Assembly: GCA_963693365.1 (NCBI GenBank)
Contig: CAVNZM010000002.1
Span: 8,343,059-8,407,058 of the forward strand
Length of the DNA: 64,000 nt
Direction: 5' to 3'
DNA from: Amoebidium appalachense
Taxonomy: Eukaryota > Protista > Ichthyosporea
Part shown: positions 13,296 to 54,894 of the stretch, piece by piece
Position numbering within the stretch: the first letter of the stretch is position 1
Layout of the letters: every line of letters starts with the position of its first letter
Translations under genes and position numbers: made by a program
Notes under the pieces: model-generated
What the model was told of the DNA's origin: nothing
Databases searched by the model: none
What the model saw: the letters and a program-made list of their open reading frames with translations, nothing else

Positions 13296-13484
13296 GGGGG
13301 TTTACGTTGTTTACTCGAGGCAAAGAAAGACCAGTCTCAGGTATGGGGGGGTTTTGCTCGGAATATCCCCTCAGCGGTATATCATGATCACGTACATAGA
13401 TGTCGGGTGATGACTATATATCAGGTTTACTTTCTCTACGGGACACCATAAAGACTAAGAGAAATCAATTAGTTGGGGTTCCCC

Positions 13485-13524
<40 letters not shown>

Positions 13525-20348: not shown

Positions 20349-20453
20349 TGAATGGACCTGTTCTTTAAAGCATTTGCACCGTGCATATGTGTACATGTGT
20401 GTTGAGGGTTTGATCTCGGTACATGTGCATAGTATCTCTATCTATGTATGATA

Positions 20454-20650
20454 TCGCACACATCGATTCAGTCGCACACATCGATTCAGTCGCACACATC
20501 GATTCAGTCGCACACATCGATTCAGTCGCACACATCGATTCAGTCGCACACATCGATTCAGTCGCACACATCGATTCAGTCGCACACATCGATTCAGTCG
20601 CACACATCGATTCAGTCGCACACATCGATTCAGTCGCACACATCGATTCA
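20454..20650 (+). repeat. 11 x 18-bp tandem monomers (GTCGCACACATCGATTCA) at the LINE 5' end
   Basis: Perfect repeats; ~1.7 units of the same monomer end LINE copy 2 at 54080-54110. Confidence 0.95.
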
Positions 20651-20755
20651 AATGTCGCTCTTTATTATCTGCTAATAAATAGTATCCTTCGCGCATCCAC
20701 CCCTAAACCAGGCCATCCGTGGCCCTAAGGGCCGGGGAACACCCCCATCCATGTC

Positions 20756-21175
20756 ATGGCACATGCCTATAATCGTTTCAGAACCTCTTTCAAAGTTCCA
20801 TCTACACCCATCACACATGTGCGACCATTAAAACGTCCAGCAGATACACCTACCACAGATGCACAACCAGAAAAACATCGCCTTAGACTAAGCGCAACAC
20901 CTATTTACAATACACTACCCATTCAGAATAACACCACACCACTCCGTAGAAACACAATAACAACCATGCCGAAACTTTCGGTTGATACAGTACTGGCAGA
21001 ACTTGCCCTCGTTAAGAAACAGCTAAATGAGCTGTTACCACTCAAGAACATGATAGAAAAACTCCAAACAGAAAATACCCAACTCAAGCTCACCATTGAT
21101 TCACTCACAGCCCAGCTAAACATTAGTGGATCGCAAAACCCCAAAACTCATGAGCAAACATCTCGCGACGGAGAC
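20756..21175 (+). pseudogene. LINE ORF1, N-terminal part (disrupted by LTR insertion)
   Basis: Identical to residues 1-140 of the intact 394-aa ORF1 at 53974-52790; heptad/coiled-coil segment LAELALVKKQLNELLPLKNMIEKLQTENTQLKLTIDSL. Confidence 0.92.
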
Positions 21176-21894
21176 TGACATATACTAATCCGTCTCAGCA
21201 GATTAGCCTAAGTCTACGATCGAGATCGGGGGGGGGGGGGGGGGGGGGGGGGTGGCCCGGGTCCACAGATCATCAAGATCAAGTCCGGGGCCTCAAGATA
21301 GCTGTACAGCTGCGTGCATCTTGCCTCTGCCGGCGCAGGGCATTGGACCACGTCAGCCGGGACAGCCGTCCAATAGAATTCTAATTAGTGTGTAGGATAG
21401 ATCGTAGGAGGACTTAGGAATGTCATTGTTCGGGCAGAAGCCCTTTTGTAAGGATTGGCAAGGTTTGATAGTATATGTTGCCAAACGTATTTATATATTT
21501 AGATGTAGAGGAAAGGGGGGGAGGGAGGGGGGGGGAGGATAGTATGAAATGTAGATTTAGACTCTGCGGTGCCACTAGGGGGAGGGTGAGGGGTGAGACT
21601 TGGATAAATATATTAGTTGAGTAGATCGACTTAGCTCGTGCAGGCGCACGATAAAAGTAGATCGGAATGTTAATGGAATGTGGCATCGTAGGGGGCCAGG
21701 TGATGATGATCTTGTAGGGCACGGCCTTGATGGCCTCAGTCGTAACTTAGACTCAATCCGTACGGATCTAAGTTTGCCCGTCGGAGCCTGGTCTTAATAA
21801 ACTTTACCGTTTTTCTGTACACGTTCGTTCCTTTTCGTGTGTGTACACTTAGTAGAGTGCCGCGTCTCTAGTACCCATACATTAGGATACGACA
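21176..21894 (+). repeat. 5' LTR
   Basis: TGACATATAC...GGATACGACA, with AATAAA near 21797. By eye it differs from the 3' LTR only in a G-run length and one substitution (taccc/tacac). Confidence 0.95.
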
Positions 21895-21901
21895 AGCTAC
21901 A

Positions 21902-22022
21902 TCGGAGCCTGGTCTTAATAAACTTTACCGTTTTTCTGTACACGTTCGTTCCTTTTCGTGTGTGTACACTTAGTAGAGTGCCGCGTCTCTAGTACCCATA
22001 CATTAGGATACGACAAGCTACA
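21902..22022 (+). repeat. 121-bp tandem duplication of the LTR 3' end plus 7 nt of leader
   Basis: 21781-21901 is repeated at 21902-22022 (tcggagcctgg...gatacgacaagctaca). Confidence 0.92.
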
Positions 22023-22104
22023 CCTTTCTTTTAGTGCGGTTTTTCGCGCTAGGGTAACGCGGTGACAGTTCCTTCTGGGCTGTTGCTACACCTCATACAC
22101 ACAG

Positions 22105-22135
<31 letters not shown>

Positions 22136-22166
22136 AACATAAACACAACCACCCGAACACCACACA

Positions 22167-23502
22167 ATGGCTAAGTTTAACGTAGACATGTTCTACGCAT
22201 TGGCAGCGGAGGATAGCTCCCTGCACACACAGGTACCACAGGTTCATACACTAGACGTTAGACAGACCACAGCTTTCAGTTTTACACTCAAACACGACTC
22301 GGAAATACCTAGGTGGCTTAGGACACTCCTAGCTAACACACCCACACTAGTGTTAGACACAAAGAAGGCCCCCACTGTGGCGGCCTCGTGCTTAATGATC
22401 AAACAGTGCATCGACCACAAAACAATGGCCGACTTATGCACCCTGATGGAGGAGCACCCGTACCGGGCCGAGCAGGCCCCCCAGGTGACGGCTCGTATAT
22501 ACGAGCAGCAGTACGACGAGGGGAGGGACGAGATGGTGTCCCGGACACTCGGCCAGAAACGTCTGGCCGCACGGTTCATCCCCGACGACGAGGACGAGAA
22601 CAGCACCGACGACGTGGACGGGGAGCTCGAGGCCTTCACACGGCCGGAAAACGAGCTCGAGTATACGGCCCGGCTCGTCGGCCGATACCTGACGGCCGAC
22701 CGGCGCCGTACCTTCCGGGCCCAGCTCAGAGAATGGAAGTATACCTTTCCCACTTTAGATATGTCCCCCGTAGAAGCTCGTGCATTCTTTGAGAGGGAAT
22801 ATCGGGTCTTTGAAGACCTTTGCGAGTTAGCTGGTGACGTGAGTGATAGGGAAAAATTCGAGTTTGCTCGTAAGGCTCTCTCTGTAAACACAGACACTGC
22901 ACGCATGTTTGGGGAGCATGATGATGTAGATGAGGTGGTGTTGCATGTTAAACGTCACTTGCTTGCCATGCACGAGGTGAAGTTCAATAAGAGGGATAAA
23001 AAGGAGGTGATGGAAGTAGACAAGAAAAAGAAGGAGAGTGGACCGAAGGGGGAAAAAGAGAAAAAAGAGGGTGAACAGCCAGATGCACTCACCATGTTGG
23101 TCAAGCAGGTTGCCGAGCTCTCCCAGGCCGTCTTCTCTGGCCGAGGGGGCTTCGGCTTCCGGGGTGGCCGTGGCGGCGACCGGGGTGGACACGGCGGTCG
23201 TGGCCGAGGTGGACGTGGAGGACAACAGCAGCAGTTCACCGAGAGGTTTGCCCCTTATCTTGCTCGTGGTGGTGGGCAGGGTAGAGGGAGGGGTGGAAAT
23301 GGTGGTGAGAGAGGCCGAGGGGGGCAGGGGGGAAGGGGGGGGCCGTGGTGCACACGGTGGGCCCCCCCAGCATGACCGGGCTCCCGGTTATGCTTTGCGC
23401 CAAGGTTTTGAAGTCCCCCCTGGCCCCTTCTTTGGGGCATGTTACTTTTGTGGCCGGCAAGGGCACTCTGCTGCATATTGCCGTAGTTACAAGAGCTATT
23501 GA
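22167..23502 (+). CDS. gag: Gag with RGG-rich nucleocapsid and CCHC zinc knuckle (frameshift at a G-run near 23340)
   Basis: 402-aa ORF 22167-23375 has an RGG-rich tail. The overlapping frame carries CYFCGRQGHSAAYC (CX2CX4HX4C) and ends at TGA 23500-23502. Confidence 0.85.
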
Positions 23503-23744
23503 GTTCCGGGGGAGGGGGAAGCTGGGGTCACTGAGGGAGGGGGGGGGGACAGTGGCGGTCCCCCCCAGGTTGCAGAGAACCTTCACCCTCCCCCACCCCA
23601 GGTTAAGCTTCCCTTTGCCCCCTCACCGCCCCGATACGTGTGGGAGCCGGGCATCGTCGTGGGTCCTCAAGACAGCGTCGAGGTGGTATGGCATGAATGT
23701 TTGTGGGGTGACTCTACCAAAGGTATGAATGGTGTTAATGTTTT

Positions 23745-24719
23745 GTGGTTGGGGGAGGTTCCCCAGCCACAAGTGGATGGTCTCAGTGTTTCTTGTCCCA
23801 ACCCGGTGTTTATTCTAACCACACCGGAGGGGGTTTCTGTGCCATTGTTTCCGGGAGGGGGGGGGGACACACACGAGTAAAGGGGGAAGGGGGGGGGAAG
23901 GCACAGACACGTCGGAACATACCACCACAACAACATACGACGGTTGCAGACACACCTACACCCACACACACACACACACATACACCAAACACACACACAC
24001 CACCCACCCACACACCACACACACACACTCCACCACCACCCACATCACATACACACCCCACCCCACCCGTGCAGGCACCACAGGTAGGTATGTTGCACGT
24101 AGGTATCGAGGGTGTGAGTCTTCGTGGGCAGGGATTGGGTGTGAGTGATGATGTGTTGCTTGAATTGGAGGAGGATTTAGTTGGTTTTAGCCGGCATTAT
24201 ATAGACGTATGGTTAGCTGATGGTAAGTTGAAGGCTGTTGCTTTGCTCGATGGAGGGGCTCAGGTTAATTGTGTGCATGCTTCGTTTATTCGTCGTTTTA
24301 ATCAGGCCGGGGGGGAAATTCCTATTTTAGATGCTTCTAGCACAGCCTTAGGTAGTGCTAATAATAGTAGTATGTCTGTGGAAGGTGTTTGTGTGTTGCC
24401 GTGTGAGATAGGTGGCCAGGCTATGCATATTGCTTGTTATGTGGTTAAGGATTTAGCTCAAAGTGTTTTGTTGGGAGCCCCATTTTTCCGTAGACATGTG
24501 AATGCTTTGCTCTTATTACCCAAAAGGAGGATGCCGGCTCGAAGGGTGACTCAGGAGGAGGGGGAACAACTTTATTTAACGTTAGCCACCAAAACGTCAC
24601 CCGACACGATGGGGGGGGGGACCGGGACAGCACCGGTCCCACTCCCCCGACCCCCAAGAGGAAGGAGGGTCACCCCGGGTGTGAGAATGTGCAGGCAGGG
24701 GGGGAGGGTGTTGGTTTAA
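23745..24719 (+). CDS. Retroviral-type aspartic protease region
   Basis: ALLDGGAQVNCV active-site motif and downstream VLLGAPFF motif; frame changes on both sides coincide with G homopolymers. Confidence 0.85.
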   Translation: MVGGGSPATSGWSQCFLSQPGVYSNHTGGGFCAIVSGRGGGHTRVKGEGGGKAQTRRNIPPQQHTTVADTPTPTHTHTHTPNTHTPPTHTPHTHTPPPPTSHTHPTPPVQAPQVGMLHVGIEGVSLRGQGLGVSDDVLLELEEDLVGFSRHYIDVWLADGKLKAVALLDGGAQVNCVHASFIRRFNQAGGEIPILDASSTALGSANNSSMSVEGVCVLPCEIGGQAMHIACYVVKDLAQSVLLGAPFFRRHVNALLLLPKRRMPARRVTQEEGEQLYLTLATKTSPDTMGGGTGTAPVPLPRPPRGRRVTPGVRMCRQGGRVLV

Positions 24720-27700
24720 CCCGTGGATCTGACGGGTTAACCAACACCGTGGGGGGCAGGGTGGCCACAGACCTGGCCCCCCACATACATGCACTAACTC
24801 ATCAGGAATTGCCCGGGGGCATTGGTGTGCCGGGGGGAGGGGGGGGTGCTAAGGGTGACCGCCTATATCCGGAGGTACCTCAACCTCACCCCGAGCAGCA
24901 CCGATGTAATACAGGAGGTGAAATGTTAAGTGGCACTCCGGTGAATAAGGATGCATCCACTTGTGATGGGGGTAACCCGGAGTTAGTATTGCCGTTTGGT
25001 ATGAAGGAGGGGGATTGGACGGTAGAACAGAAAAAATTGCTAGCTAAGTTATTTGATAGGACTCGGTTTGCATTTCTGGCCGATGATAACGAAGTAGGCT
25101 TCGTTAAAGGGTTTGAAATGCAGATCGACACAGGTGATAATAGGCCGGTAGTGATGCCTAGCTATAGAATGGAGCAGTATAAATTGTCGGATGCGCTAAT
25201 AATAGTGAGTGATATGTTAAAAAAGGGTCATGTGGAGCATAGTTCGAGTCCGTGGAGAAGTCCGGTGCTATTGGTTAAGAAGCCCGACGGGTCTTGGCGC
25301 CTAGTGAACGATTACAGGGCTCTGAATCGGATCACTAAGGCAGACCAATGGCCTCTCCCTAACATAGACGAGCAGCTTTCACAGCTGCACGGCTATACTC
25401 ACTTTGCTAAACTTGATTTAAAAGCAGCTTTTTGGCAGATAAGGTTGGAGGAGAGCAGCAAGGAGAAGACTGCCTTTGCACTGGGTGACCAGCTGTTCCA
25501 GTACAAGGTGGTGCCGATGGGTTTGCTCTCCTCTCCAGCTATGTTGTGCCGGGTAATGTATAAAATTCTCCACCCTCATTTGGATGTATGCCACCCTTAT
25601 TTGGATGATGTTTTAATTAAAGGTAGGTCATTTGAGGAGTTAGTTAATAATTGTGAAAAAGTATTTTTAGCTTTGGGTGAGTCTGGTCTTCGTATTAGCG
25701 GTAGCAAGACTGTGATTGGTGTGCCGGAGGTTAAGTTTTTAGGTCATATTGTGTCTAGTAATGGTCTTTCCCCTGATCCGGAGAAAATCCGGGCCATAGT
25801 TGAGTGGCCCCGTCCTCAGACTGTCACTCAACTAAGGCAATTTTTAGGTTTAACTAATTATCTTCGTCGTTATATTAAGGACTATAGTATGCTTGCTTTG
25901 CCGTTAACTAGTCAGACGGGGGGGGAGAAGAAGAATAGAATAGATTGGAATGTTGATGCTGTTTCTGCTTTCGAAAAGCTTAAGTTAGCTTTGCAGTCTT
26001 CGAGTATGCTTGTTCATCCTGATTTTTCGGCCGGGGGGGGGATGTTTAAAGTTCGGTGCGATGCAAGTAAGGTTGCTGAGGGGGCCGTGTTATATCAAGT
26101 GCAGGAGGGGCAGGATAGAGTGATTGCTTATGCTAGTCGTTCATTTAGTAAAAGTGAACGTAGATATAGCAATCCGGAGAGAGAGTCCCATGCTATCTTT
26201 TGGGCAGTCTCACAGGCATGGAGGTATATACTCGCAGGCAGGACGTTTGAGGTCTACACCGACCACAAGCCCTGCCTAGCCATGGCCGGCACCACTCGTC
26301 TGGTCAACGAGAGGATGCAGAAGTGGGCCGCGGCTCTCGGTGAGTTCTCCTATAAATTGTTTTATGCCAAGGGTGAAACAATGGTCGACTGTGATGCTCT
26401 CTCTCGTGCTGCTTATATTTTGTTTGAAGAAGAGAAGGAGGGGGAGGGGGGGGATAGTGAGAGACGGGGGGGGGAGGGGGGGAAGGGGGGGGCGAGTGAG
26501 CAGAAAGGAATAGATGCTGTGTCTGTGGATGTGTCTTCTTGGGTTCCGGGGTTGCTTGCTTATAAGTGTAGGAGAGGGGGGGGGAGGTATTTGTCGGTGT
26601 CTGAGGTCGGGACCGAGTCTCATGGCTCGGCCCCTGCCTTAGCACCTACGGCTTTGATCTTAGCTCAGGAGGAAGATGTGTTGATTGGTCTGGTTAAGAA
26701 TTATTTAAAGGGGCCGGTTGATTCGATTAAATTTACAAATAAAAGGCAGATGATTAAGGTAGCTAAGTTAGCAAAAATGTGTCAGGTAGAGCAGGATTTA
26801 GTTTATCATTGTTCTGGGCCAGACGGACACCGAGTTTGGGTCCCGACGGCACTTGTGCCTGAGGTTTTGCATATGGTGCATGAGCATCCCATGGCTGGTC
26901 ATTTAGGTGTAAATAGGACGTTGCTTCGTGTTAATCGTTCGTATTTTTGGCCGGGTATGAGTAGGGAGGTGAGGGATTATGTGTTGTCATGCATGCATTG
27001 TCAGGAAAGGAATGAGAGTCCCCACTCTCGTTCCCGCCCGTCGTTTATTAGGGATTTTAATGTTCGTATGTTTGAAAGGGTAGCAGTGGATGTGGTCGGT
27101 CCTTTTAATTTTACGGTTGAGGGTAACACTGTTCTTGTTACCGTCACCGATGTGGCCACTCGTTGGGTTGAAGTTTTTCCTCTCCCCACTGCTAATGCCG
27201 TTTTGTTTGCTCGTATTTTTGTGGATGAAATTTGTCTTAGGTTTGGTTGTCCTCGTGTTTTGTTAACGGATAGGAGTCGTGTGTTTTTAAATCAGTTGGT
27301 GTCGGAGGTGTGTAAAATTTTAAGGGTAGCTCATATCACTACGTCTGCATATCACCCTCAAGCAAATGCCATCTCTGAACGTGTGCATGCAGTGTTTCAG
27401 AAGTCCTTTGGCAAAATGGTGGATGTGGAGGCTAATGATTGGGATCATATGTCTAGGTTTATTGCTCATTCATATAATTCTACCCCTCATGCTGTGACTG
27501 GTTTTTCTCCGTTTTATTTGGTCTATGGGCAGGAGGCTATTAGTTTGTTAGATACGGCACTTTTGCCGATGGGGGGGGCTGACCGACTAACTTATCCCCA
27601 CTGGACTGAGTTCCGGGAGCAGCTACTAACCCGGGCCCGGGCTGCACGTGATGCAGCTCTGGCCCGTACACAGCAGGCACAGGCACGTACAGACGTGTCC

Positions 27701-28402
27701 ACACGTCCGTTACGTGAATTTGCCGAGGGTACTTTAGTTTTAATTAGGGATCATACTAGGAAGAAGAGATATAAGCAGGAGCAGGAAGGTAAGGGTGAAG
27801 GTGAAGGTCTTCGTAAGTATGGTAAGAAATGGTTGCCTCTTTTTATCGGTCCGTATAAAATAGTGGCTAGGTTAGGTCCGACGGAATATAAGGTGCAGAG
27901 GTTAGATAATGAGAGTGATGTTAGATTTTATAATGTAGATGATATAAAGGAATATTATGATAGGGCCCTTAGGGTTAAACGGCCGGAGGGCCGTCGAGTG
28001 TTAGATGCATTCACCCCCGACTATGACGGGTCGGTGGATGTATCGGAGGCTGCAGTAGATAAAATTATGGATAAAAAGGTTATCGAAGGTAAGGAAGGTA
28101 AGGTAAATTATTATTTAATTCGTTTTGAGGGAGGTTATCAGGAAGATCAGTGGTTGCCTGAGTTTCATTTGGATTGCCCGTTTTCTATTCGTGCTTATGA
28201 GGCTAGATTAGTGCAGAGGGAGTTGCCTAGTGCTCCCTCTCGGCCAAAGAGAGTTATTCCTCAGTTTAATCGTGGTGTGAAAAAGTCGGTGGGGGAGGGG
28301 GCCGGGGGGGGGAGTGATGCAAATACACGTAGACACAGGGGGGGAGGGGGAGGGAGGGGGAGGAGACCGAGGAGGAGTGTGAACGTAGTCGTAGGAATTT
28401 AA
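24689..28402 (+). CDS. pol: Pol: reverse transcriptase, RNase H, integrase, chromodomain
   Basis: SPVLLVKKPDGSWRLVNDYRALN, YLDD, CDAS...YTDHKP, HEHPMAGH...CMHC, AVDVV...TDRS...E, GPYKI, and C-terminal VDKIMDKK...YLIRFEG...DQWLPE chromodomain. Confidence 0.96.
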   Translation: MQAGGEGVGLTRGSDGLTNTVGGRVATDLAPHIHALTHQELPGGIGVPGGGGGAKGDRLYPEVPQPHPEQHRCNTGGEMLSGTPVNKDASTCDGGNPELVLPFGMKEGDWTVEQKKLLAKLFDRTRFAFLADDNEVGFVKGFEMQIDTGDNRPVVMPSYRMEQYKLSDALIIVSDMLKKGHVEHSSSPWRSPVLLVKKPDGSWRLVNDYRALNRITKADQWPLPNIDEQLSQLHGYTHFAKLDLKAAFWQIRLEESSKEKTAFALGDQLFQYKVVPMGLLSSPAMLCRVMYKILHPHLDVCHPYLDDVLIKGRSFEELVNNCEKVFLALGESGLRISGSKTVIGVPEVKFLGHIVSSNGLSPDPEKIRAIVEWPRPQTVTQLRQFLGLTNYLRRYIKDYSMLALPLTSQTGGEKKNRIDWNVDAVSAFEKLKLALQSSSMLVHPDFSAGGGMFKVRCDASKVAEGAVLYQVQEGQDRVIAYASRSFSKSERRYSNPERESHAIFWAVSQAWRYILAGRTFEVYTDHKPCLAMAGTTRLVNERMQKWAAALGEFSYKLFYAKGETMVDCDALSRAAYILFEEEKEGEGGDSERRGGEGGKGGASEQKGIDAVSVDVSSWVPGLLAYKCRRGGGRYLSVSEVGTESHGSAPALAPTALILAQEEDVLIGLVKNYLKGPVDSIKFTNKRQMIKVAKLAKMCQVEQDLVYHCSGPDGHRVWVPTALVPEVLHMVHEHPMAGHLGVNRTLLRVNRSYFWPGMSREVRDYVLSCMHCQERNESPHSRSRPSFIRDFNVRMFERVAVDVVGPFNFTVEGNTVLVTVTDVATRWVEVFPLPTANAVLFARIFVDEICLRFGCPRVLLTDRSRVFLNQLVSEVCKILRVAHITTSAYHPQANAISERVHAVFQKSFGKMVDVEANDWDHMSRFIAHSYNSTPHAVTGFSPFYLVYGQEAISLLDTALLPMGGADRLTYPHWTEFREQLLTRARAARDAALARTQQAQARTDVSTRPLREFAEGTLVLIRDHTRKKRYKQEQEGKGEGEGLRKYGKKWLPLFIGPYKIVARLGPTEYKVQRLDNESDVRFYNVDDIKEYYDRALRVKRPEGRRVLDAFTPDYDGSVDVSEAAVDKIMDKKVIEGKEGKVNYYLIRFEGGYQEDQWLPEFHLDCPFSIRAYEARLVQRELPSAPSRPKRVIPQFNRGVKKSVGEGAGGGSDANTRRHRGGGGGRGRRPRRSVNVVVGI

Positions 28403-28584
28403 TTTATTATCATAGGTGTCTCCGTAGGTATCAAGCTTATGGTGTAGATTAATTTATTATTTTTCTTCGTAATTTATTTAATTTAATTTTTTTTAGGAGA
28501 CTGATTAGTCTATGTCTTTTTAGGGGGTGTTAGATGTAATGTGACTGAGGTGGGACTCAGCTTTTCCGGGGGCCGGGGGGGAGT

Positions 28585-28635
28585 TGACATATACTAATCC
28601 GTCTCAGCAGATTAGCCTAAGTCTACGATCGAGAT

Positions 28636-28672
<37 letters not shown>

Positions 28673-29313
28673 GGCCCGGGTCCACAGATCATCAAGATCA
28701 AGTCCGGGGCCTCAAGATAGCTGTACAGCTGCGTGCATCTTGCCTCTGCCGGCGCAGGGCATTGGACCACGTCAGCCGGGACAGCCGTCCAATAGAATTC
28801 TAATTAGTGTGTAGGATAGATCGTAGGAGGACTTAGGAATGTCATTGTTCGGGCAGAAGCCCTTTTGTAAGGATTGGCAAGGTTTGATAGTATATGTTGC
28901 CAAACGTATTTATATATTTAGATGTAGAGGAAAGGGGGGGAGGGAGGGGGGGGGAGGATAGTATGAAATGTAGATTTAGACTCTGCGGTGCCACTAGGGG
29001 GAGGGTGAGGGGTGAGACTTGGATAAATATATTAGTTGAGTAGATCGACTTAGCTCGTGCAGGCGCACGATAAAAGTAGATCGGAATGTTAATGGAATGT
29101 GGCATCGTAGGGGGCCAGGTGATGATGATCTTGTAGGGCACGGCCTTGATGGCCTCAGTCGTAACTTAGACTCAATCCGTACGGATCTAAGTTTGCCCGT
29201 CGGAGCCTGGTCTTAATAAACTTTACCGTTTTTCTGTACACGTTCGTTCCTTTTCGTGTGTGTACACTTAGTAGAGTGCCGCGTCTCTAGTACACATACA
29301 TTAGGATACGACA
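28585..29313 (+). repeat. 3' LTR
   Basis: Near-identical to 21176-21894 and followed by TSD GAGAC. Confidence 0.95.
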
Positions 29314-29318
29314 GAGAC

Positions 29319-30083
29319 ATTTCCACCCCAACACAAAACAACACAGGACCGGAAGCACAGCTCCCGGCAGAGTTCCTAGAATATGCGAACTCTCGTAAAA
29401 CACCCGAGCTCCGCCAAATTGCCAAGGAAACATATGCCAGCATTCTTGCAGGCAACGAGTACCGCCGCAACTCCCCTTCCAAACCGCCGGCTAAGGGGAA
29501 CACCCAAGCAAACGGTAACATCAACATCCCACCCAAATACGAGAGGGTGTATTTCAAAGTCAAGCACGGCAGACGCCCACACAGGGCCATGTGGTCCATC
29601 TTCAAGGCTCTCGGCTTCCGGTGCTCTCGCATCCTTTGTCTGTCCTTCATTGGATACGATGTGCTGGAAGTAGCAGTACGGGGCGACTATAACCGTGCGT
29701 TCATCCGTGACGCGACAAAGGGGTGTGGAAGCTTCTTCACCCACCTCCCAAACTACGACCCATGCGCGCCGGAAAACATTCAGAAAGCAGACAAAGAACG
29801 TAAAGTGTCTGCTAAGAATGCGTGCGCCACACGTTGTCGTGTACGCATCAGCAAGGCAAAAGAGTTCCTCGCAAAGTTGGAAAACGATGCTACGAGCGTG
29901 ATAGACACGGACACGAAGGAACCAATGTTTTCTGGTGAGAAACTGCTCGAGCGCAAACGCCGATGCGAGATGGAAATCGAGCTCTTCTGCGAACTGTTCG
30001 CGCTGGCGGAAGGTCGTGCATACGACCCCGTAAGCGACAAGTGGGAACCAACCCCACAGGTGTCGGACCAAACCGATGCCTAA
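29319..30083 (+). pseudogene. LINE ORF1, C-terminal part
   Basis: ISTPTQNNTGPE...QVSDQTDA* is identical to the C-terminal part of intact ORF1 in copy 2. Confidence 0.92.
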
Positions 30084-33000
30084 TTTATCCTTCTTCTTCT
30101 GGAATGCTCGGACACTGGGCCCCCAAAAGGGCCTCCCCCCCGGGACACTCGACGATAAAATCAGCTACATACAACAACAGACAAACAACCACACGTTTAC
30201 AGTGATTTGCGAAACACAGTTTAAAAACCACCACAAATTCAACTCTACATTGGTCGACACATCCACACACCCCGGTTACGCGAAAAACCGAGGCATTATT
30301 GTACTTGCCGCACCACACGTGAGAGTGAAGTGCAAACCGGTAGCAAAAACGGAATTCTCGGTTTCTATAGAGTTTCTTTCTAATGTTTTTACTTTTGTAT
30401 ATTACCCACCATCTATGTCGGTTGTCGAATTGACTCACGAGTTGTCACAGTTACCAATGTCCACTGTTATTTTAGGTGATTTTAACACGCGACTCCACCA
30501 CACAGACACACTGCAAGTGAGTGTCGGGTACCCATCTAAGCCCCCGGAGCGTGCTATCCCTTTAGCAAGGTATGTCCAAAGTCACACTTTGCGGTTCCCT
30601 CAAATATCCCATGCCCACAACACCGACTGGGGAGTGGCCTTTTGGCCATCAACCATGTCAAAACTCTCTCTCCCTCCTAACCTCTCTAGGTCATCTGACC
30701 ACTCTCCTATCCTTTTCCTACCTAAGATCTCCCTTGATCTGCTCCCCCCTCCCCCTCCCACCTTTCGCCTCCGTCTATCCCAGCTTAAGTCACAGTGGGG
30801 TAGAGTTGATGTATGTGTATGCTATGCTACGAAACACCCTATATATATGCGCCTATTAGAATCTGCACAAGCCAGGCCAGATTCACATCTCGTACTAGAT
30901 ACATGCACTAACTTTATTGTTGATGATTTGATAGATCTCGGTGATTATGCTGGCGGTGGTAGGAAGGAATATCCCGATGCTCTCTTGTTACCAAACACCA
31001 CTCCCGCTAGACTAGGTGAACCCCTGTCTCAAAAGGAAAGCTTGCGCCGGCTTGCTAGTATGAATCGATTTGGCCCCCCTGCTCGTATTATTGGTGATAC
31101 CACTGGAGACCCCCTCATAGACTCTGATAAGTATTTCTCGGAACTGTTTAAAGATAGGACCCCCGCTCAGAAACCTATTGTGTGGCCTGTAGACCCATCT
31201 ATCCCCATAGAATCGATCCTCCCCTTTTTCAGTCCCGATGCCATATGGTCTGTGATATCTAGTTATAGCTCTAGTAAGTCTTGTGGACCTGATGGACTCC
31301 CTGCTGGGTTTCTTAAAATCCTTGTTCCCTCCTACCCACAAAAGGAAAGTGATCGTGCTATTAAACCTGATCTTACTATCATGTTAAGCTCTCTCTTTTC
31401 TTGGTGTGTTAAATGTGGACATGTCCCGTCATCTTGGTTAGATACCTTAGTGATCCCCATAGTTAAGAAGGACTCTGAGGGCCCCATATCATCCTTTCGC
31501 CCCATTACACTAACCCAGGTTGTTCGTAGATTCTTTGAAGCTTGCTTACTTAGGTTATTTGCACATCACCCTAGGTTTCAATCTATTCTTCACATACACC
31601 CATGCCAATCCGCTTTTCGTAAAAACAATTCATGTTATGTTCAAATAATGGCACTGCACGATTCTATGCAAGTTGGTGCACAATATGTTGGCTTTATTGA
31701 TTGGAAAACTGCTTACGATTCTGTCTCCCCTGGTCTCCTATGGGAAAAGCTTGCTGCACGGGGTGTACCACACTGCATTGGTGTTCTGTTAGAAGCACTC
31801 TTGTCTCAAACCTATGGTAGAGCTGTGGTTAATGGGCATCTTTCATATGGTTTTGCTCGTACTAGAGGTCTCTTGCAGGGTTCATTGCTTAGCCCCTTTT
31901 TGTTTAACCTATTTATAGATGATTTGGCTGTCAAGATTTACGCCGAAAACGATGACCCTATTAATAACTTTCCGCCTGCACTTCTCTATGCTGATGATCT
32001 GTCCCTCCTTGCCCGTACCCCTAGACGCCTGCAAAGATTGTTCGATGTAGTGTCAGAGTGGTGCAAGGCAAACCTTATGATCCTTAACATAGACAAATGT
32101 GGTGTTCTTGTACCTGATATAGCTAACAATTTACACACATTTACATTATCATCTAAACCTGTACCTATAGTTCCAGAATACAAATATCTTGGTGTTCCGG
32201 TTGATTCTGTTGGTGTTATGTTTCCCCATATGGTCGAAAAGAGGGTAGAGTTGGCTCGTAAGCGGTTAGCTTTCTTCTCGGCTAATATTTTTAAAGACAC
32301 ACCCCTCCATCCTTCTATTAGACTTACATTTATTCGCACTTTTGTCTTCCCGGCATGTGAATATGGTTTACCCCTTCTCGCCGCTTGGATCAAGAAAGAG
32401 AGAACTAGAGCGCTTAAACCCTTGGCAAATTTCCTTGAAGCAGAAGTTGCCTCCTTTCTATCTAACAACTGTTGTAAACCTGGGCCTGTAACGCTCTCGA
32501 TATATGGTCTGGTCCCAATAGCTGCTAGAGTATCCTATCTCGCGCTGAAATTCAATAAGCACATAAGCCGCTTAAAGAAGTATTTGCCCTCCCACCCTCT
32601 CTTCTCTATCCGACCTGTCCCCTCCTCACCTCTCCCCTCTTTCCTCCCCTCTCTCTCCCCTTCTCCCCTGGGCACAAATACAAATAAACCCCGCAATAGT
32701 GTGTGTGTGACTTTGGACTGCCACTTACTTATTAAACATGTACACAATCACAAGATAATCACGCAATATAACAAATGGAAAAAGATACCACACGACACTA
32801 GACCCGATGAAAGCATACACCTTGAAAAACTAAGCCTTATGTCTCGTTTTATATATACTGACCGCCTCAACCATATTGCCAAATATGGCACTCGCAAGTG
32901 TATAACACCTAAATACATATTACCTTCCTGTAGAACTGGTCTTTCTCTAGCTGATGGTATTATTGATCAATTACCACGCTTTTACTGTACACGTGCTATA

Positions 33001-33270
33001 CAGTGGAGATCTAATAAGTATAAGGTGGCATCATTTGCATGCCCAAACAACACACACACACACCAGTTTAACCGGTCATGTATCGCCAAATGTAGTTTGA
33101 TAGACCACATAATACCGCAACACACACACGTCACATTCACAACAGACACCCAGAAAGATAGCCTACCTGTAAATTACAACATCCTTGATTTTATACTAAA
33201 CACGCGTAACTACGACCTGTTTATTAGATGTATTGATTGGCTTGAGAAACACATCACTACAAAATTATAG
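30076..33270 (+). CDS. LINE ORF2: APE endonuclease plus reverse transcriptase (1064 aa)
   Basis: APE motifs FWNAR, ICET, YYPP, LGDFN, SDH; RT motifs GPDG, FRPITL, IDWKTAYD, QGSLLSP, YADD, YKYLG; Cys/His-rich C-terminus. Confidence 0.96.
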   Translation: MPNLSFFFWNARTLGPQKGLPPGTLDDKISYIQQQTNNHTFTVICETQFKNHHKFNSTLVDTSTHPGYAKNRGIIVLAAPHVRVKCKPVAKTEFSVSIEFLSNVFTFVYYPPSMSVVELTHELSQLPMSTVILGDFNTRLHHTDTLQVSVGYPSKPPERAIPLARYVQSHTLRFPQISHAHNTDWGVAFWPSTMSKLSLPPNLSRSSDHSPILFLPKISLDLLPPPPPTFRLRLSQLKSQWGRVDVCVCYATKHPIYMRLLESAQARPDSHLVLDTCTNFIVDDLIDLGDYAGGGRKEYPDALLLPNTTPARLGEPLSQKESLRRLASMNRFGPPARIIGDTTGDPLIDSDKYFSELFKDRTPAQKPIVWPVDPSIPIESILPFFSPDAIWSVISSYSSSKSCGPDGLPAGFLKILVPSYPQKESDRAIKPDLTIMLSSLFSWCVKCGHVPSSWLDTLVIPIVKKDSEGPISSFRPITLTQVVRRFFEACLLRLFAHHPRFQSILHIHPCQSAFRKNNSCYVQIMALHDSMQVGAQYVGFIDWKTAYDSVSPGLLWEKLAARGVPHCIGVLLEALLSQTYGRAVVNGHLSYGFARTRGLLQGSLLSPFLFNLFIDDLAVKIYAENDDPINNFPPALLYADDLSLLARTPRRLQRLFDVVSEWCKANLMILNIDKCGVLVPDIANNLHTFTLSSKPVPIVPEYKYLGVPVDSVGVMFPHMVEKRVELARKRLAFFSANIFKDTPLHPSIRLTFIRTFVFPACEYGLPLLAAWIKKERTRALKPLANFLEAEVASFLSNNCCKPGPVTLSIYGLVPIAARVSYLALKFNKHISRLKKYLPSHPLFSIRPVPSSPLPSFLPSLSPSPLGTNTNKPRNSVCVTLDCHLLIKHVHNHKIITQYNKWKKIPHDTRPDESIHLEKLSLMSRFIYTDRLNHIAKYGTRKCITPKYILPSCRTGLSLADGIIDQLPRFYCTRAIQWRSNKYKVASFACPNNTHTHQFNRSCIAKCSLIDHIIPQHTHVTFTTDTQKDSLPVNYNILDFILNTRNYDLFIRCIDWLEKHITTKL

Positions 33271-33274
33271 CGCA

Positions 33275-33341
<67 letters not shown>

Positions 33342-33373
33342 CCAGCTGATACCGAGTGTCCCGAGGGGAGCCC

Positions 33374-33433
<60 letters not shown>

Positions 33434-34493
33434 GGGGAACCCCAACTAATTGATTTCTCCTTGTAGTCTTTATGGTGTCTCGTAGAGAAAGTAAACCCTG
33501 ATATATAGTCACCACCCGACATCTATGTACGTGATCATGATATACCGCTGAGGGGATATTCCGAGCAAAACCCCCCCCCCCCATACCTGAGACTGGTTCT
33601 CTTTGCCTCGAGTAAACAGCGTAAACCCCATATCGATATCCCATCATTTTTGATGATTGGCAGTCCCAGGCCTTATAACCGTTCTCAACCTCAATAGCTG
33701 AAAAGTACTTGAACTTTGCATGATGTACATGTCCGAAATCTGACATCGGCCCCCCATGTGACTACTATGGCAACATGGGACCAACATGCATGGTACTTAG
33801 GTTCATGTACATGTAATAATCTCCTTCCAAAACTGAGAAAGGGAGGCTCAGGGTCATAGTCACAGTGTCGAGGGCATGCTCTCACTTAGTCTCCAAGGCT
33901 AAGTACCACTGGCTAACGTAAGTGGCCGGGCACCGTAGTACTACGCCGAAAAAAAAAAAAAGAAAGAAAAGAAGAAAAAAAAAAAGGAAAAAAAAAGGCC
34001 GCAGGGAAGACGGAGTCTTGGCGGTCACCGATTCGGACCCGTCAGAAATTGACCGAAAGAGTAAAATAACCAAACAAAGTTACAATAATATTCAGTCTGG
34101 ATTCATTCATCCAATGAATCTGACTCTAGACCCAATGTATACGATTGGCTGAAAAACATTATTTTTATATCCCATGTGTAGATCGGAATTGCCTTAGAGC
34201 GAATCGAGAGGTTTCACTGCCCTGCCAGAAGAAACCCAGATAGCCTGGGACAGCTTCTTCACATAAATTGCTATGCACAAAGTAGCGGTATATTAAATAG
34301 CCATCATCGATTATCTGTACAGTGTATTATTTCAAAAAACAATAGAACCCATTAGCACAATCAATGATCAACAACTCAAGGTGTGTCATGCCAGTGTGTG
34401 CGAAATGCGGAATCATCAGCGATGACAGATGATGCCAAAGACAAATCTGATTCGTCAAATGATTTCATTGGCCCGCACCACCTCGGTAGGGGC

Positions 34494-34503: not shown

Positions 34504-34633
34504 CGCCGATCTTTGCACCAGGCATCAGTCAACTTTTGCGGCGCACTGCACACACACAACAGTCAGGAACAAAACCGAAGCTCAGTAGCGCCTTCTTTTT
34601 AGTTGTTGCCTCTTTCTTCGGGTCATAATAACA

Positions 34634-40248: not shown

Positions 40249-40288
<40 letters not shown>

Positions 40289-47940: not shown

Positions 47941-49464
47941 TTTCTATAGCTATACGCTGTGCAACAGTTGCAGAGTCTAGTTGAGCAGATTTGTCGTTTT
48001 CTCCTCCCCAAATTACTTGGTTCTATCGAATGGTCATGTACATGTTGATCTATGCATATGTACCTTGTTGGCTAGAGCTTATGATACCGATGTTCGATAG
48101 CTAATATATGCATCAGTGAGCCCAACAAATGCTGATTTAGCACTTGCAGTAGGCAGGTAACAGGCGATTATAGCTACAGGCCATACTCGGGCACTCCATG
48201 AATTACTTCATGGCGAAACACGGAAATACTTCCGTTGTGCCTTTGCTAAAGCGCGTGTGCCGAAACGCAAAACTGACAACTTGTGGGGGTTGCTACCGCG
48301 TGTTTATATTATAGCCGCCACGCAAACCGCATTGATTGGCGGATATCTATCTAGTTATTAGAATTTGTGGTCACATTCGATTGGATTAGATCATTTCGAA
48401 TCTAATTTCTAAATATTCCATGCACATATTGAGTGATTGATTCGTTAAATATCACGAATCAGAGGTGACACCTTTCGATCATCCAATCACAGCAGCTCTT
48501 ATATGGGGGCCAATCATTCCTGAAGTTTCGTGAGAATGGAGTTGGCAATGGCTCAACGGACAAAAACAACAGACTTTACCCAAAGGGTTCTCTGTGTTAT
48601 ATAAATTATGGATGCATCAAAAATGCCTCCAAGAAGTGAAGGGAACAGCATTTATTATGATAGTTGCCGACAATCGTGCCAGGGCTTGCGGTGCACCAGA
48701 ACCGTGTTAACACAACAACAGCGTGCGTGGCCTTGCAAGATATCGAACGTGGACGTTGCACAATGCACAGTCAGACCCACATGTAGCATGTACAGTCAGA
48801 GGGTCACACGCGGCGAACATGTACGTGATCTCTGTGCTGCAAGAACAGTCAGACAGTTGTCACTGTTGTAATGAAAGCTTGCAGAATGGCATGTACAGCT
48901 TGTACAGCTTGTACACACACTGTAGCTGTCAATGTGTGAATGTATCGAGGGTGGCATGTGCATGTATCCGACGTGTTGTGTTGGGAGGGCCTAGCTGTGA
49001 TCAAACTTGTGACCAAAATTTTACGTTTGCCCACGTTGTCAACTGATGCATCAGCTGGTTGCTCAACAACGCATGTGCGGTCACTGCGGTGGGATGGCTT
49101 TCCACGTTCCCATGGTGCACTGCCCTTGACTCAATGAATTGTAGTTGTACGGTATGCGCTGGCCACCTTGGACTGTTGGAGCGCCTCACGTACATGTAAG
49201 CAGGGTGCAAGCACAACGCGTGGGGTTAGGTAGCACATGCACGCATATTCCTACTTTCGATATGCGTTAGGGGTTTACGCTGTTTACTCGAGGCAAAGAG
49301 AACCAGTCTCAGGTATGGGGGGGGGGGGTTTGCTCGGAATATCCCCTCAGCGGTATATCATGATCACGTACATAGATGTCGGGTGGTGACTATATATCAG
49401 GGTTTACTTTCTCTACGAGACACCATAAAGACTACAAGGAGAAATCAATTAGTTGGGGTTCCCC

Positions 49465-49497
<33 letters not shown>

Positions 49498-49529
49498 GGG
49501 CTCCCCTCGGGACACTCGGTATCAGCTGG

Positions 49530-49582
<53 letters not shown>

Positions 49583-49602
49583 TGTGTGTGTGTGCGCGTG
49601 CG

Positions 49603-52600
49603 CTATAATTTTGTAGTGATGTGTTTCTCAAGCCAATCAATACATCTAATAAACAGGTCGTAGTTACGCGTGTTTAGTATAAAATCAAGGATGTTGTAAT
49701 TTACAGGTAGGCTATCTTTCTGGGTGTCTGTTGTGAATGTGACGTGTGTGTGTTGCGGTATTATGTGGTCTATCAAACTACATTTGGCGATACATGACCG
49801 GTTAAACTGGTGTGTGTGTGTGTTGTTTGGGCATGCAAATGATGCCACCTTATACTTATTAGATCTCCACTGTATAGCACGTGTACAGTAAAAGCGTGGT
49901 AATTGATCAATAATACCATCAGCTAGAGAAAGACCAGTTCTACAGGAAGGTAATATGTATTTAGGTGTTATACACTTGCGAGTGCCATATTTGGCAATAT
50001 GGTTGAGGCGGTCAGTATATATAAAACGAGACATAAGGCTTAGTTTTTCAAGGTGTATGCTTTCATCGGGTCTAGTGTCGTGTGGTATCTTTTTCCATTT
50101 GTTATATTGCGTGATTATCTTGTGATTGTGTACATGTTTAATAAGTAAGTGGCAGTCCAAAGTCACACACACACTATTGCGGGGTTTATTTGTATTTGTG
50201 CCCAGGGGAGAAGGGGAGAGAGAGGGGAGGAAAGAGGGGAGAGGTGAGGAGGGGACAGGTCGGATAGAGAAGAGAGGGTGGGAGGGCAAATACTTCTTTA
50301 AGCGGCTTATGTGCTTATTGAATTTCAGCGCGAGATAGGATACTCTAGCAGCTATTGGGACCAGACCATATATCGAGAGCGTTACAGGCCCAGGTTTACA
50401 ACAGTTGTTAGATAGAAAGGAGGCAACTTCTGCTTCAAGGAAATTTGCCAAGGGTTTAAGCGCTCTAGTTCTCTCTTTCTTGATCCAAGCGGCGAGAAGG
50501 GGTAAACCATATTCACATGCCGGGAAGACAAAAGTGCGAATAAATGTAAGTCTAATAGAAGGATGGAGGGGTGTGTCTTTAAAAATATTAGCCGAGAAGA
50601 AAGCTAACCGCTTACGAGCCAACTCTACCCTCTTTTCGACCATATGGGGAAACATAACACCAACAGAATCAACCGGAACACCAAGATATTTGTATTCTGG
50701 AACTATAGGTACAGGTTTAGATGATAATGTAAATGTGTGTAAATTGTTAGCTATATCAGGTACAAGAACACCACATTTGTCTATGTTAAGGATCATAAGG
50801 TTTGCCTTGCACCACTCTGACACTACATCGAACAATCTTTGCAGGCGTCTAGGGGTACGGGCAAGGAGGGACAGATCATCAGCATAGAGAAGTGCAGGCG
50901 GAAAGTTATTAATAGGGTCATCGTTTTCGGCGTAAATCTTGACAGCCAAATCATCTATAAATAGGTTAAACAAAAAGGGGCTAAGCAATGAACCCTGCAA
51001 GAGACCTCTAGTACGAGCAAAACCATATGAAAGATGCCCATTAACCACAGCTCTACCATAGGTTTGAGACAAGAGTGCTTCTAACAGAACACCAATGCAG
51101 TGTGGTACACCCCGTGCAGCAAGCTTTTCCCATAGGAGACCAGGGGAGACAGAATCGTAAGCAGTTTTCCAATCAATAAAGCCAACATATTGTGCACCAA
51201 CTTGCATAGAATCGTGCAGTGCCATTATTTGAACATAACATGAATTGTTTTTACGAAAAGCGGATTGGCATGGGTGTATGTGAAGAATAGATTGAAACCT
51301 AGGGTGATGTGCAAATAACCTAAGTAAGCAAGCTTCAAAGAATCTACGAACAACCTGGGTTAGTGTAATGGGGCGAAAGGATGATATGGGGCCCTCAGAG
51401 TCCTTCTTAACTATGGGGATCACTAAGGTATCTAACCAAGATGACGGGACATGTCCACATTTAACACACCAAGAAAAGAGAGAGCTTAACATGATAGTAA
51501 GATCAGGTTTAATAGCACGATCACTTTCCTTTTGTGGGTAGGAGGGAACAAGGATTTTAAGAAACCCAGCAGGGAGTCCATCAGGTCCACAAGACTTACT
51601 AGAGCTATAACTAGATATCACAGACCATATGGCATCGGGACTGAAAAAGGGGAGGATCGATTCTATGGGGATAGATGGGTCTACAGGCCACACAATAGGT
51701 TTCTGAGCGGGGGTCCTATCTTTAAACAGTTCCGAGAAATACTTATCAGAGTCTATGAGGGGGTCTCCAGTGGTATCACCAATAATACGAGCAGGGGGGC
51801 CAAATCGATTCATACTAGCAAGCCGGCGCAAGCTTTCCTTTTGAGACAGGGGTTCACCTAGTCTAGCGGGAGTGGTGTTTGGTAACAAGAGAGCATCGGG
51901 ATATTCCTTCCTACCACCGCCAGCATAATCACCGAGATCTATCAAATCATCAACAATAAAGTTAGTGCATGTATCTAGTACGAGATGTGAATCTGGCCTG
52001 GCTTGTGCAGATTCTAATAGGCGCATATATATAGGGTGTTTCGTAGCATAGCATACACATACATCAACTCTACCCCACTGTGACTTAAGCTGGGATAGAC
52101 GGAGGCGAAAGGTGGGAGGGGGAGGGGGGAGCAGATCAAGGGAGATCTTAGGTAGGAAAAGGATAGGAGAGTGGTCAGATGACCTAGAGAGGTTAGGAGG
52201 GAGAGAGAGTTTTGACATGGTTGATGGCCAAAAGGCCACTCCCCAGTCGGTGTTGTGGGCATGGGATATTTGAGGGAACCGCAAAGTGTGACTTTGGACA
52301 TACCTTGCTAAAGGGATAGCACGCTCCGGGGGCTTAGATGGGTACCCGACACTCACTTGCAGTGTGTCTGTGTGGTGGAGTCGCGTGTTAAAATCACCTA
52401 AAATAACAGTGGACATTGGTAACTGTGACAACTCGTGAGTCAATTCGACAACCGACATAGATGGTGGGTAATATACAAAAGTAAAAACATTAGAAAGAAA
52501 CTCTATAGAAACCGAGAATTCCGTTTTTGCTACCGGTTTGCACTTCACTCTCACGTGTGGTGCGGCAAGTACAATAATGCCTCGGTTTTTCGCGTAACCG

Positions 52601-52797
52601 GGGTGTGTGGATGTGTCGACCAATGTAGAGTTGAATTTGTGGTGGTTTTTAAACTGTGTTTCGCAAATCACTGTAAACGTGTGGTTGTTTGTCTGTTGTT
52701 GTATGTAGCTGATTTTATCGTCGAGTGTCCCGGGGGGGAGGCCCTTTTGGGGGCCCAGTGTCCGAGCATTCCAGAAGAAGAAGGATAAATTAGGCAT
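49603..52797 (-). CDS. LINE ORF2 (APE plus RT), 1064 aa
   Basis: Translation appears identical to 30076-33270. Confidence 0.96.
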   Translation of the reverse strand: MPNLSFFFWNARTLGPQKGLPPGTLDDKISYIQQQTNNHTFTVICETQFKNHHKFNSTLVDTSTHPGYAKNRGIIVLAAPHVRVKCKPVAKTEFSVSIEFLSNVFTFVYYPPSMSVVELTHELSQLPMSTVILGDFNTRLHHTDTLQVSVGYPSKPPERAIPLARYVQSHTLRFPQISHAHNTDWGVAFWPSTMSKLSLPPNLSRSSDHSPILFLPKISLDLLPPPPPTFRLRLSQLKSQWGRVDVCVCYATKHPIYMRLLESAQARPDSHLVLDTCTNFIVDDLIDLGDYAGGGRKEYPDALLLPNTTPARLGEPLSQKESLRRLASMNRFGPPARIIGDTTGDPLIDSDKYFSELFKDRTPAQKPIVWPVDPSIPIESILPFFSPDAIWSVISSYSSSKSCGPDGLPAGFLKILVPSYPQKESDRAIKPDLTIMLSSLFSWCVKCGHVPSSWLDTLVIPIVKKDSEGPISSFRPITLTQVVRRFFEACLLRLFAHHPRFQSILHIHPCQSAFRKNNSCYVQIMALHDSMQVGAQYVGFIDWKTAYDSVSPGLLWEKLAARGVPHCIGVLLEALLSQTYGRAVVNGHLSYGFARTRGLLQGSLLSPFLFNLFIDDLAVKIYAENDDPINNFPPALLYADDLSLLARTPRRLQRLFDVVSEWCKANLMILNIDKCGVLVPDIANNLHTFTLSSKPVPIVPEYKYLGVPVDSVGVMFPHMVEKRVELARKRLAFFSANIFKDTPLHPSIRLTFIRTFVFPACEYGLPLLAAWIKKERTRALKPLANFLEAEVASFLSNNCCKPGPVTLSIYGLVPIAARVSYLALKFNKHISRLKKYLPSHPLFSIRPVPSSPLPSFLPSLSPSPLGTNTNKPRNSVCVTLDCHLLIKHVHNHKIITQYNKWKKIPHDTRPDESIHLEKLSLMSRFIYTDRLNHIAKYGTRKCITPKYILPSCRTGLSLADGIIDQLPRFYCTRAIQWRSNKYKVASFACPNNTHTHQFNRSCIAKCSLIDHIIPQHTHVTFTTDTQKDSLPVNYNILDFILNTRNYDLFIRCIDWLEKHITTKL

Positions 52798-53974: not shown

Positions 53975-54894
53975 GACATGGATGGGGGTGTTCCCCGGCC
54001 CTTAGGGCCACGGATGGCCTGGTTTAGGGGTGGATGCGCGAAGGATACTATTTATTAGCAGATAATAAAGAGCGACATTTGAATCGATGTGTGCGACTGA
54101 ATCGATGTGTTATCCGATTTGGCACCTTTCTTTGGGATTCACCCTAGAAGGTTAGGGGGATTTATTGTGAGCTCCACCAAAAACCATCTACAGTAGCCAA
54201 GCCATGTAAAACCTCTTCATTGGTTATCAATATATATGTTAAAACCTCTTTGATTATTTTTGGCACATATATATTGCGTTGCTGCATTTCTATACGCCAT
54301 CAAAAACTCTGTTTCCGAGCCGCGCGCGCGCGTGGCGAACGTGTGACTGCCTGGCGCTGGCTCCAGATGATAAGTATCAATTTATAGTTAAAATTATACA
54401 AATGCAGTTATTGGCTTTTAGTCACAATGGGATTTCGTCGCTATTTTTCCCGCCAAATTCTAGGGTGTGACTGAGCCATCGTTTCTTTCTTTCTTTTTTT
54501 TTTTTTTTTGCTTTATTTACGAAGCCATGCACATGCAGTTTCTGGCTCGTCTGTAGAGCACTAAATACTATCATAGCCAACGACGTGCACCAAGATCTGC
54601 AAACATCATAAATTACGACCTTTGTCTACCATTCACTCCTTTCACCATCCGTTGACCATCCTTAATCTTTAACATGCCGTGTAGGTCCCGATCTTCCATT
54701 CTGTCCTAACAGCCACCAAGCCTTGTTCAAGATTTTTCCTTGTCTTGAAATCGTGGCTATGGTACAGCCGTGCTCTGGCGGGGCAACAGCCCGTAACGCG
54801 CCAGGCCCCTTAGAAACGGTTTCGCGCTTCTGCCAACGACATAATTATCAGATGGTGCCCACTTGCGCGACTTGGTTAAGAACGGGGAGGTGTC

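Follow-up and report, generated by a model that had tools for sequence, protein, structure and literature searches.

A LINE of Amoebidium appalachense that ends at a short C-run, probably an almost tail-less member of a clade of APE-LINEs with telomere-like ends

In a stretch of 64,000 nucleotides from Amoebidium appalachense (hereafter the window), a recently active LINE ends each of its copies at a short run of C and not at a terminal poly(A). Our preferred reading, to which we give a probability of about 0.65, is that the last 197 nt of this APE-LINE (the module) form the element's own native distal 3′ UTR, and that reverse transcription starts on the C-run at the tip without needing poly(A). 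Judged from sequence comparison, the window LINE likely belongs to a clade of APE-LINEs with telomere-like ends, as a branch with almost no tail, and only the tip of the module, its last ~19 nt, is conserved in the relatives. The odd-looking LINE end is thereby placed inside a broad clade with telomere-type tails.

Two near-identical copies of the LINE and one short copy are found within the window (Table 1). Copies 1 and 2 share 99.97% identity over 3278 nt, and the segments of the three copies are 92-99% alike. After the ORF2 stop, both full copies run through (CA)n, a short unique linker, GGGGAGCCCC, TTT, A55 or A28, and 197 nt to GTAAACCCC. This is the order given in a preliminary description of this DNA, except that TTT sits between GGGGAGCCCC and the A-run. 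The internal A-tract is 55 nt long in copy 1, 28 nt in copy 2 and 38 nt in copy 3. The same description held that the copies share one layout and a common end of four or five C before the TSD, which is borne out by three of three insertions with TSDs of 4-6 bp. The TSDs ATATCG, TAAC and TTGT adjoin the C-run directly, in copy 3 after one extra C; TTGT is found on both sides of copy 3, with an extra CC at the 5′ side. Copy 3 is likely a 5′-truncated copy that stalled in the A-tract. In copy 2, TAAC is ambiguous between a TSD and a partial tail unit. An L1-type terminal poly(A) before the TSD is present in none of the three window copies. The terminal 23-mer occurs three times in the window, compared with 0.00 times in 100 shuffles. 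GTAAAC is present twice, 9 nt apart, at the LINE end, and TAAACCC equals one telomere-type C-strand unit, so the LINE end has some repeat character. Homopolymer runs of at least 12 nt in the window number 82 for C, 22 for G and 11 for A. At the other end of the element, the 5′ array of copy 2 (54080-54108) contains no complete 18-nt unit by the count used for copy 1, and array length is thus variable. This array is likely a putative promoter region. Both LINE TSDs have 2-3 nt in common with the 18-mer repeat.

Table 1. Coordinates of the LINE copies and associated features in the window
Feature	Position	Strand	Remarks
LINE copy 1	20457-33629	+	split by Ty3/gypsy element
Copy 1 5′ part (5′ UTR and ORF1 start)	20457..21175	+	556 nt 100% identical to copy 2
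Copy 1 5′ TSD ATATCG	20451..20456	+	directly precedes element 5′ end
Copy 1 3′ TSD ATATCG	33630..33635	+	directly after GTAAACCCC
5′ array of 18-nt repeat	20457..20649	+	10 full units in copy 1
Ty3/gypsy LTR retrotransposon in copy 1 ORF1	21176..29313	+	LTR pair; RT, RNase H, integrase; 5-bp TSD GAGAC
ORF2 frame, copy 1	30034..33270	+	1078 aa stop to stop
ORF2 stop, copy 1	33268-33270	+	
(CA)n microsatellite in 3′ UTR	33279..33340	+	
GGGGAGCCCC ... GGGGAACCCC direct repeat (9/10 match)	33365..33443	+	flanks TTT-A55-C
Internal A-tract, copy 1	33378..33432	+	A55
Distal 3′ UTR (module)	33433..33629	+	197 nt; ends GTAAACCCC
Clade end signature AGTAAA-spacer-GTAAACCCC	33611..33629	+	matched by relatives' profile
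LINE copy 2	49270..54108	-	uninterrupted; same layout, A28
Copy 2 ORF1 frame	52790-54001	-	
Copy 2 ORF2 frame	49603-52839	-	
Copy 2 TSD TAAC (GTTA on +)	49266-49269 and 54109-54112		both sides
Copy 3	13297..13523	-	A38 and distal 189 nt of segment only; 92% identical

The coding capacity is that of an APE-type LINE. The RT domain of ORF2 matches RVT_1 (E = 6e-28) and its homologues are LINE RTs. At the ORF2 N-terminus, N, E, Y, GDFN, D and SDH columns align with the relatives, residues that we take to be the APE endonuclease motifs; several of the aligned relatives carry PF03372/PF14529 endonuclease domains, and the window ORF2 protein has no Pfam endonuclease match of its own. A Cys/His motif is located at the C-terminal end of ORF2, and no match to RNase H was found in ORF2. 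The domain search gave no Pfam match for ORF1, and neither a zinc-finger ORF1 domain nor zf-RVT was matched in the window element. The ORF1 core resembles unnamed eukaryotic clusters, most often of Mucoromycota (score 0.92, a lead only), and EukProt holds a 98%-identical protein. RT, APE-type columns, TSDs of 4-6 bp and 5′ truncation, as expected of an APE-type non-LTR element, are all present.

The window also contains other sequences of note. The Ty3/gypsy element has a long open pol and a perfect 121-nt tandem duplication after the end of its 5′ LTR (21781-21901 and 21902-22022). At 34589-37894, a 1101-aa open frame with ten SdrD B-like repeats resembles bacterial surface proteins, in otherwise eukaryotic sequence. 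Dispersed multi-block repeats of 89-100% identity, interrupted by microsatellites, are located at 13149-15272, 16146-19253 and 40201-43350, and are possibly duplicated exons of a gene family.

The position at which the element ends is also evident in public sequence runs. Four of 24 candidate runs (X17, X16, X5 and X6) were searched, and all contigs were mapped on the coordinates of copy 2, with positions 49452-49533 (A-run and linker) masked, so that the junction counts cover ends outside the masked A-run. In X17, a public DNA run, 2568 contigs map to the module. Among the matches listed, 33 loose ends of X17 fall at 49270, 14 at 49269 and 10 at 49260, and at least 47 X17 contigs with differing flanks (flank agreement 0.36-0.44) stop within 1 nt of the CCCC. 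Six X16 contigs stop at 49270 and two X5 contigs stop at 49269. No poly(A) flank is found among the junctions listed in the mapped runs, and the earlier claim that terminal poly(A) is lacking holds for these junctions as for the three window copies. On the inner side, X16 contigs end at 49299 and 49301 with long unrelated flanks, which are read as copies truncated to about 30 nt. Tandem joints in X17 lead from 49364 and 49401 back onto 49270, and in one X16 contig A27 precedes a truncated ORF2. In X16, six contigs continue past the CCCC, their long flanks differing from one another and none of those listed being a poly(A); read-through and DNA fit these contigs equally, and that X16 is RNA is a guess only. 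An X5 contig of depth 2 (49269-49300) has the last 32 nt preceded by an inverted copy of the last 18 nt, which may be a twin-priming-like or a double-ended tiny insertion. The flanks of copy 2 are uncovered in all four runs, a gap from which nothing follows.

Summed contig depth, which is not copy number and is used qualitatively only, drops about 8-fold in X17 from the ORF2 end (about 750-890k) to ORF1 (about 90-110k), and over most bins of the module it is 350-910k, similar to the ORF2 end. LINE and module depths are 26.2 and 24.2 in X6, and 31.5 and 14.5 in X5, where the module has half the depth. Either of these two runs may be the source of this DNA. The lack of a large module excess over the LINE 3′ end, together with truncation from the 5′ side, matches target-primed copying from the CCCC. 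Given the fixed end, the 5′-truncated copies, the fall in depth from 3′ to 5′ and the tandem joints onto the CCCC, the CCCC is likely the start of reverse transcription. The same observations agree with the preliminary description in that the distal segment is part of the LINE and the CCCC is its 3′ junction.

We then compared this end with those of related LINEs. A scan of metagenome contigs yielded 79 loci, 50 of which have an intact ORF2 C-terminus. In 21 of the 50 loci, a hexamer of the poly(A)-signal type and then a CCTAA-type motif occur in the first 300 nt after the stop (mean 0.58 and maximum 4 in shuffles), and the pattern of their ends is AATAAA-spacer-CC(TAACCC)n. A profile set of 22 loci was assembled from 20 of the 21 tailed loci plus L020 and L048, whose ends lie just past 300 nt; L005, whose own end lacks the unit, was excluded. 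The 22 aligned relatives end in a hexamer, a spacer, roughly TTAAACCC, and then one to four units of TAACCC, TAAACCC or TAACC, which are three common telomere types. Their 3′ UTRs measure 28-318 nt and lack homology to the module except for a single 14-nt match. None of the 22 relatives has an A-run longer than 6 in the UTR, and none has 8 or more A within 40 nt past the tail. The distance from the hexamer start to the end is 19 nt in the window LINE and 9-24 nt in 21 of the 22 relatives. AGTAAA is a non-canonical hexamer, which the window LINE has in common only with L020 and L048 (one family). A second AGTAAA at 33490 marks no end.

A profile consisting of an 8-nt core and the upstream hexamer was trained on the relatives alone and run on both strands of the window. 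With the threshold set at the score of the copy 1 end itself, and the anchor and allowed hexamers picked after seeing the window, it matches 6 of 127,942 positions, all of them at the three LINE termini, and simulated windows average 1.8 combined matches. When close pairs and L020/L048 are left out, there are 7 matches, one of which is elsewhere; the core alone gives 88 to 133 matches in the window. The LINE end, mapped independently, thus falls on a rare profile site, which suggests that the CCCC is likely the native LINE end. If so, the module is native UTR, and the A-tract is internal and lineage-specific. A full TAACCC unit follows the signature in none of the three window copies; in copy 2 the signature is followed by TAAC, the sequence of its TSD. 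The terminal pattern has no match in the viral_contigs and genome_contigs sets, and the search for relatives in viral_contigs returned one weak, unrelated locus. A TSD search in 12 loci of relatives found nothing convincing, most of these contigs stopping short of the 5′ end. In L001 and L005, the common family end runs into differing flanks after one unit, and L003, L009 and L016 have CCCTAA-bearing repeats downstream.

The RT phylogeny places the window LINE with the tailed loci. Trees were built with FastTree (82 rows) and with IQ-TREE (43 rows, after removal of most database proteins and of eight loci that were duplicates or on long branches) and were midpoint rooted; there was one long-branch warning, for L020/L033. 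All 18 tailed loci in the IQ-TREE tree are on the window's side of a 99/98 split, and FastTree agrees, whereas none of the 12 loci on the other side is tailed in this way, and four of those 12 have G-strand ends. Six of the 24 loci on the window's side have no tail call, three because the contigs are too short and three because no tail is present. The window element, P0004 and P0005 (the latter two with 54% and 40% identity over the RT region) form the earliest branch on their side, sister to all tailed loci, so that loss of the tail and a tail never gained are both compatible with the tree. Each of the best 150 profile matches exceeds 700 bits, and most are close to full length, so that the clade is large. 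Neither the profile homologue search nor the cluster look-up returned a named clade member.

Several further features of the relatives were noticed. L003 (6110-6400) and L009 (4470-4720) contain two different clade LINEs followed by one common tandem repeat of ~30 nt that contains CCCTAA, which suggests a subtelomere-like target. Clade members are stacked head to tail in L001 (1-95, 4731-4850) and L020, and in L001 a 46-nt 3′-end piece lies directly behind a full copy. L008, L010, L015 and L017 have 5′ tandem repeats with a period of about 140-147 nt. Outside the clade, the 3′ ends of L023, L031, L040 and L041 carry the opposite, G-strand motif GTTAGGG, followed in L040 by a long TTAGGG array up to the contig end.

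The module itself had been described as a conserved structured unit of ~197 nt for recognition by the RT, and this description is not supported: it folds no better than shuffles, has no Rfam match and has no homologous counterpart in the UTRs of the relatives. Compared with shuffles, folding of the whole module gives z = +1.37 in the sense and -0.01 in the antisense orientation, and none of 16 sub-windows of 60 nt on both strands is below z = -0.73, so that no stem-loop goes beyond shuffles. Rfam searches, which the preliminary description had proposed for both strands together with folding, returned no match at the gathering threshold and only three weak, composition-driven ones, far below the cut-off, at E up to 10. 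The hammerhead core CTGANGA is absent from both strands, and simple patterns found no Pol III A or B box. A self-cleaving ribozyme or known ncRNA is unlikely, given the Rfam result at the gathering level and the absence of a hammerhead core. The one notable predicted pairing joins the GGGG-N2-CCCC 10-mers GGGGAGCCCC and GGGGAACCCC into a GC clamp that leaves the A-run as a loop; it occurs in the fold of 33341-33450 but drops out of the minimum-energy structure of the longer stretch 33341-33629. BLASTN of the module against the 3′ UTRs of 50 relatives gave a single 14-nt match. It lies at 33509-33522 and is exact, on the opposite strand, to an arm of a long hairpin in the L022 3′ UTR (E = 0.014), possibly by chance. 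Most likely, the 197-nt segment is an ordinary, fast-evolving UTR.

A mechanism can be proposed for how such an end could be used. Transcripts of short-repeat-tailed LINEs can be polyadenylated beyond the repeats, and copying of the I factor reportedly starts precisely on UAA repeats. In the window LINE, the putative poly(A) signal AGTAAA, 19 nt upstream, would direct host cleavage and polyadenylation at or just past the CCCC. The RT would then recognize the terminal motif and start beneath any added poly(A), as proposed for short-repeat-tailed LINEs such as the I factor. The APE would nick dispersed targets, and pairing between primer and template would not be required. At the 5′ junctions no C stands in front of any of the three TSDs, so that copying can do without pairing to a G-rich primer in the window copies. 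Both the internal A-tract and (CA)n likely arose as expansions within the UTR that are specific to this lineage.

Other explanations deserve consideration. The RNA might not be polyadenylated at all, being cut or terminated exactly at the CCCC, with the encoded A-tract, looped by the clamp, replacing poly(A) in PABP binding and stability. We regard this as unlikely. The listed junctions without poly(A), an A-tract kept at 28-55 nt in three of three copies, the clamp predicted for 33341-33450 and the non-canonical hexamer AGTAAA all speak for it, but the A-tract is found in 0 of the 22 relatives that have the common end signature, the clamp is missing from the minimum-energy fold of 33341-33629, the window is rich in homopolymer runs anyway, and there is no ribozyme-like core or Rfam match. 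The non-polyadenylation route favored in the preliminary description is further weakened by the hexamer of poly(A)-signal type close to the end in 21 of 22 relatives and in the window LINE. It is likewise doubtful that an undescribed-looking, large LINE clade primes on a telomere-mimic RNA end, by telomerase-like reiteration or with the assistance of telomerase, and that the window family has been reduced to a bare CCCC on a non-polyadenylated RNA whose encoded poly(A) is looped by the GC clamp, as a high-copy LINE needing no poly(A) tail, repeat tail or primer pairing. The C-rich tip could also prime by pairing with G-rich ends, either telomere overhangs or telomerase-added repeats at the nick, as in Athena/Coprina; on this view, the relatives' tails would mimic telomeres, and the window family would be a reduced form. 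The telomere-type units of the relatives, the CCCTAA-bearing repeats downstream of L003, L009 and L016, the TAAC of copy 2 as one possible partial unit and the at least 10 X17 contigs that match on to 49260 agree with such priming, which the available text of PMC8557442 describes for endonuclease-less Penelope-like elements. We nevertheless consider it quite unlikely, as the window element has APE-type motifs, copies 1 and 3 have ordinary TSDs and no TAACCC unit, tandem telomere repeats are absent from the whole window, and the flanks of L001 and L005 differ after a single unit.

Two further explanations would make the module foreign to the LINE. Captured antisense small RNA had been raised in the preliminary description. 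A separate T-tailed SINE or Pol III small RNA, lying antisense and caught at the LINE poly(A), would account for the solo copy (copy 3) and for an antisense strand that begins with GGGG and finishes with GGGGTTCCCCG-T(n). This is highly improbable, since the signature of the LINE clade is located at the CCCC end rather than ahead of the A-run, truncations affect the inner side, and simple patterns yielded neither an A nor a B box; there is also no large depth excess over the ORF2 end, and the fold is not above shuffles. Alternatively, the RT could start on a separate module RNA and jump to the poly(A) end of a LINE mRNA. The tandem joints onto the CCCC, suggestive of template jumping or nested insertion, and the X16 contig with a truncated ORF2 preceded by A27 would fit such a chimera, yet both full copies have an identical linker-TTT-A(n)-C junction and the end signature belongs to the LINE itself, so that we give this explanation very little weight.

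An APE-LINE that starts on its own native 3′ end has parallels in known systems. The I element of Drosophila (TAA repeats) and UnaL2 of eel (TGTAA repeats), which are stringent-type APE LINEs, have short-repeat tails other than poly(A), according to the available part of PMC3747384. The window LINE is like these two in having two ORFs, APE and RT, dispersed insertion, TSDs, 5′ truncation, no terminal poly(A) and an end defined by 3′ UTR sequence, but its tail is reduced to a single C-run or telomere-type unit, folding revealed no stem-loop, and it has an internal A-tract of A28-55. The I factor also has an RNase H (in the portion of PMC2881922 at hand), whereas none was found in the window ORF2. 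The CCCTAA-tailed metagenomic clade shares with the window LINE the RT clade (99/98), a related ORF1 type and a hexamer-spacer-TAAA-CC arrangement at equal spacing; the window copies differ in lacking a full TAACCC unit, in having the A-tract and (CA)n, and in being the earliest branch. Athena/Coprina Penelope-like elements, as far as the available text of PMC8557442 goes, are alike in the C-strand telomere-type 3′ end of their RNA, but the window LINE has a non-LTR-type RT, APE-type motifs, TSDs, interior insertion and no hammerhead core. TRAS1/SART1 (excerpts of PMC4700185) and MoTeR/FoTeR (in the descriptions available) are LINEs linked to telomere repeats and insert into telomere arrays, whereas each window copy has unique flanks at a dispersed site. 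The Mucor element Grem-LINE1 is an APE-RT LINE of early-diverging fungi; in the accessible part of 10.1101/706580 it has a 3′ poly(A) signal, a zinc-finger ORF1 and zf-RVT, the latter two not found in the window LINE. Deceiver and Inkcap, clades named in PMC4427930, are APE-RT LINEs of early-diverging fungi as well.

In the literature searched, we found no dispersed APE-LINE clade with AATAAA-CC(TAACCC)n ends, although Repbase and the original description of Deceiver/Inkcap, which lie outside this search, may catalogue the clade, and no LINE with both an internal poly(A) and a C-run end. What the window adds is a very young and abundant branch that has the clade signature, essentially no repeat tail and, in addition, an internal A-tract. 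The window family is a natural test of what an RT needs in order to start, be it a terminal motif, pairing, poly(A) or telomerase, and an RT able to begin exactly at a short, defined end, and to do so at dispersed sites, would be of interest for retroelement-based insertion work.
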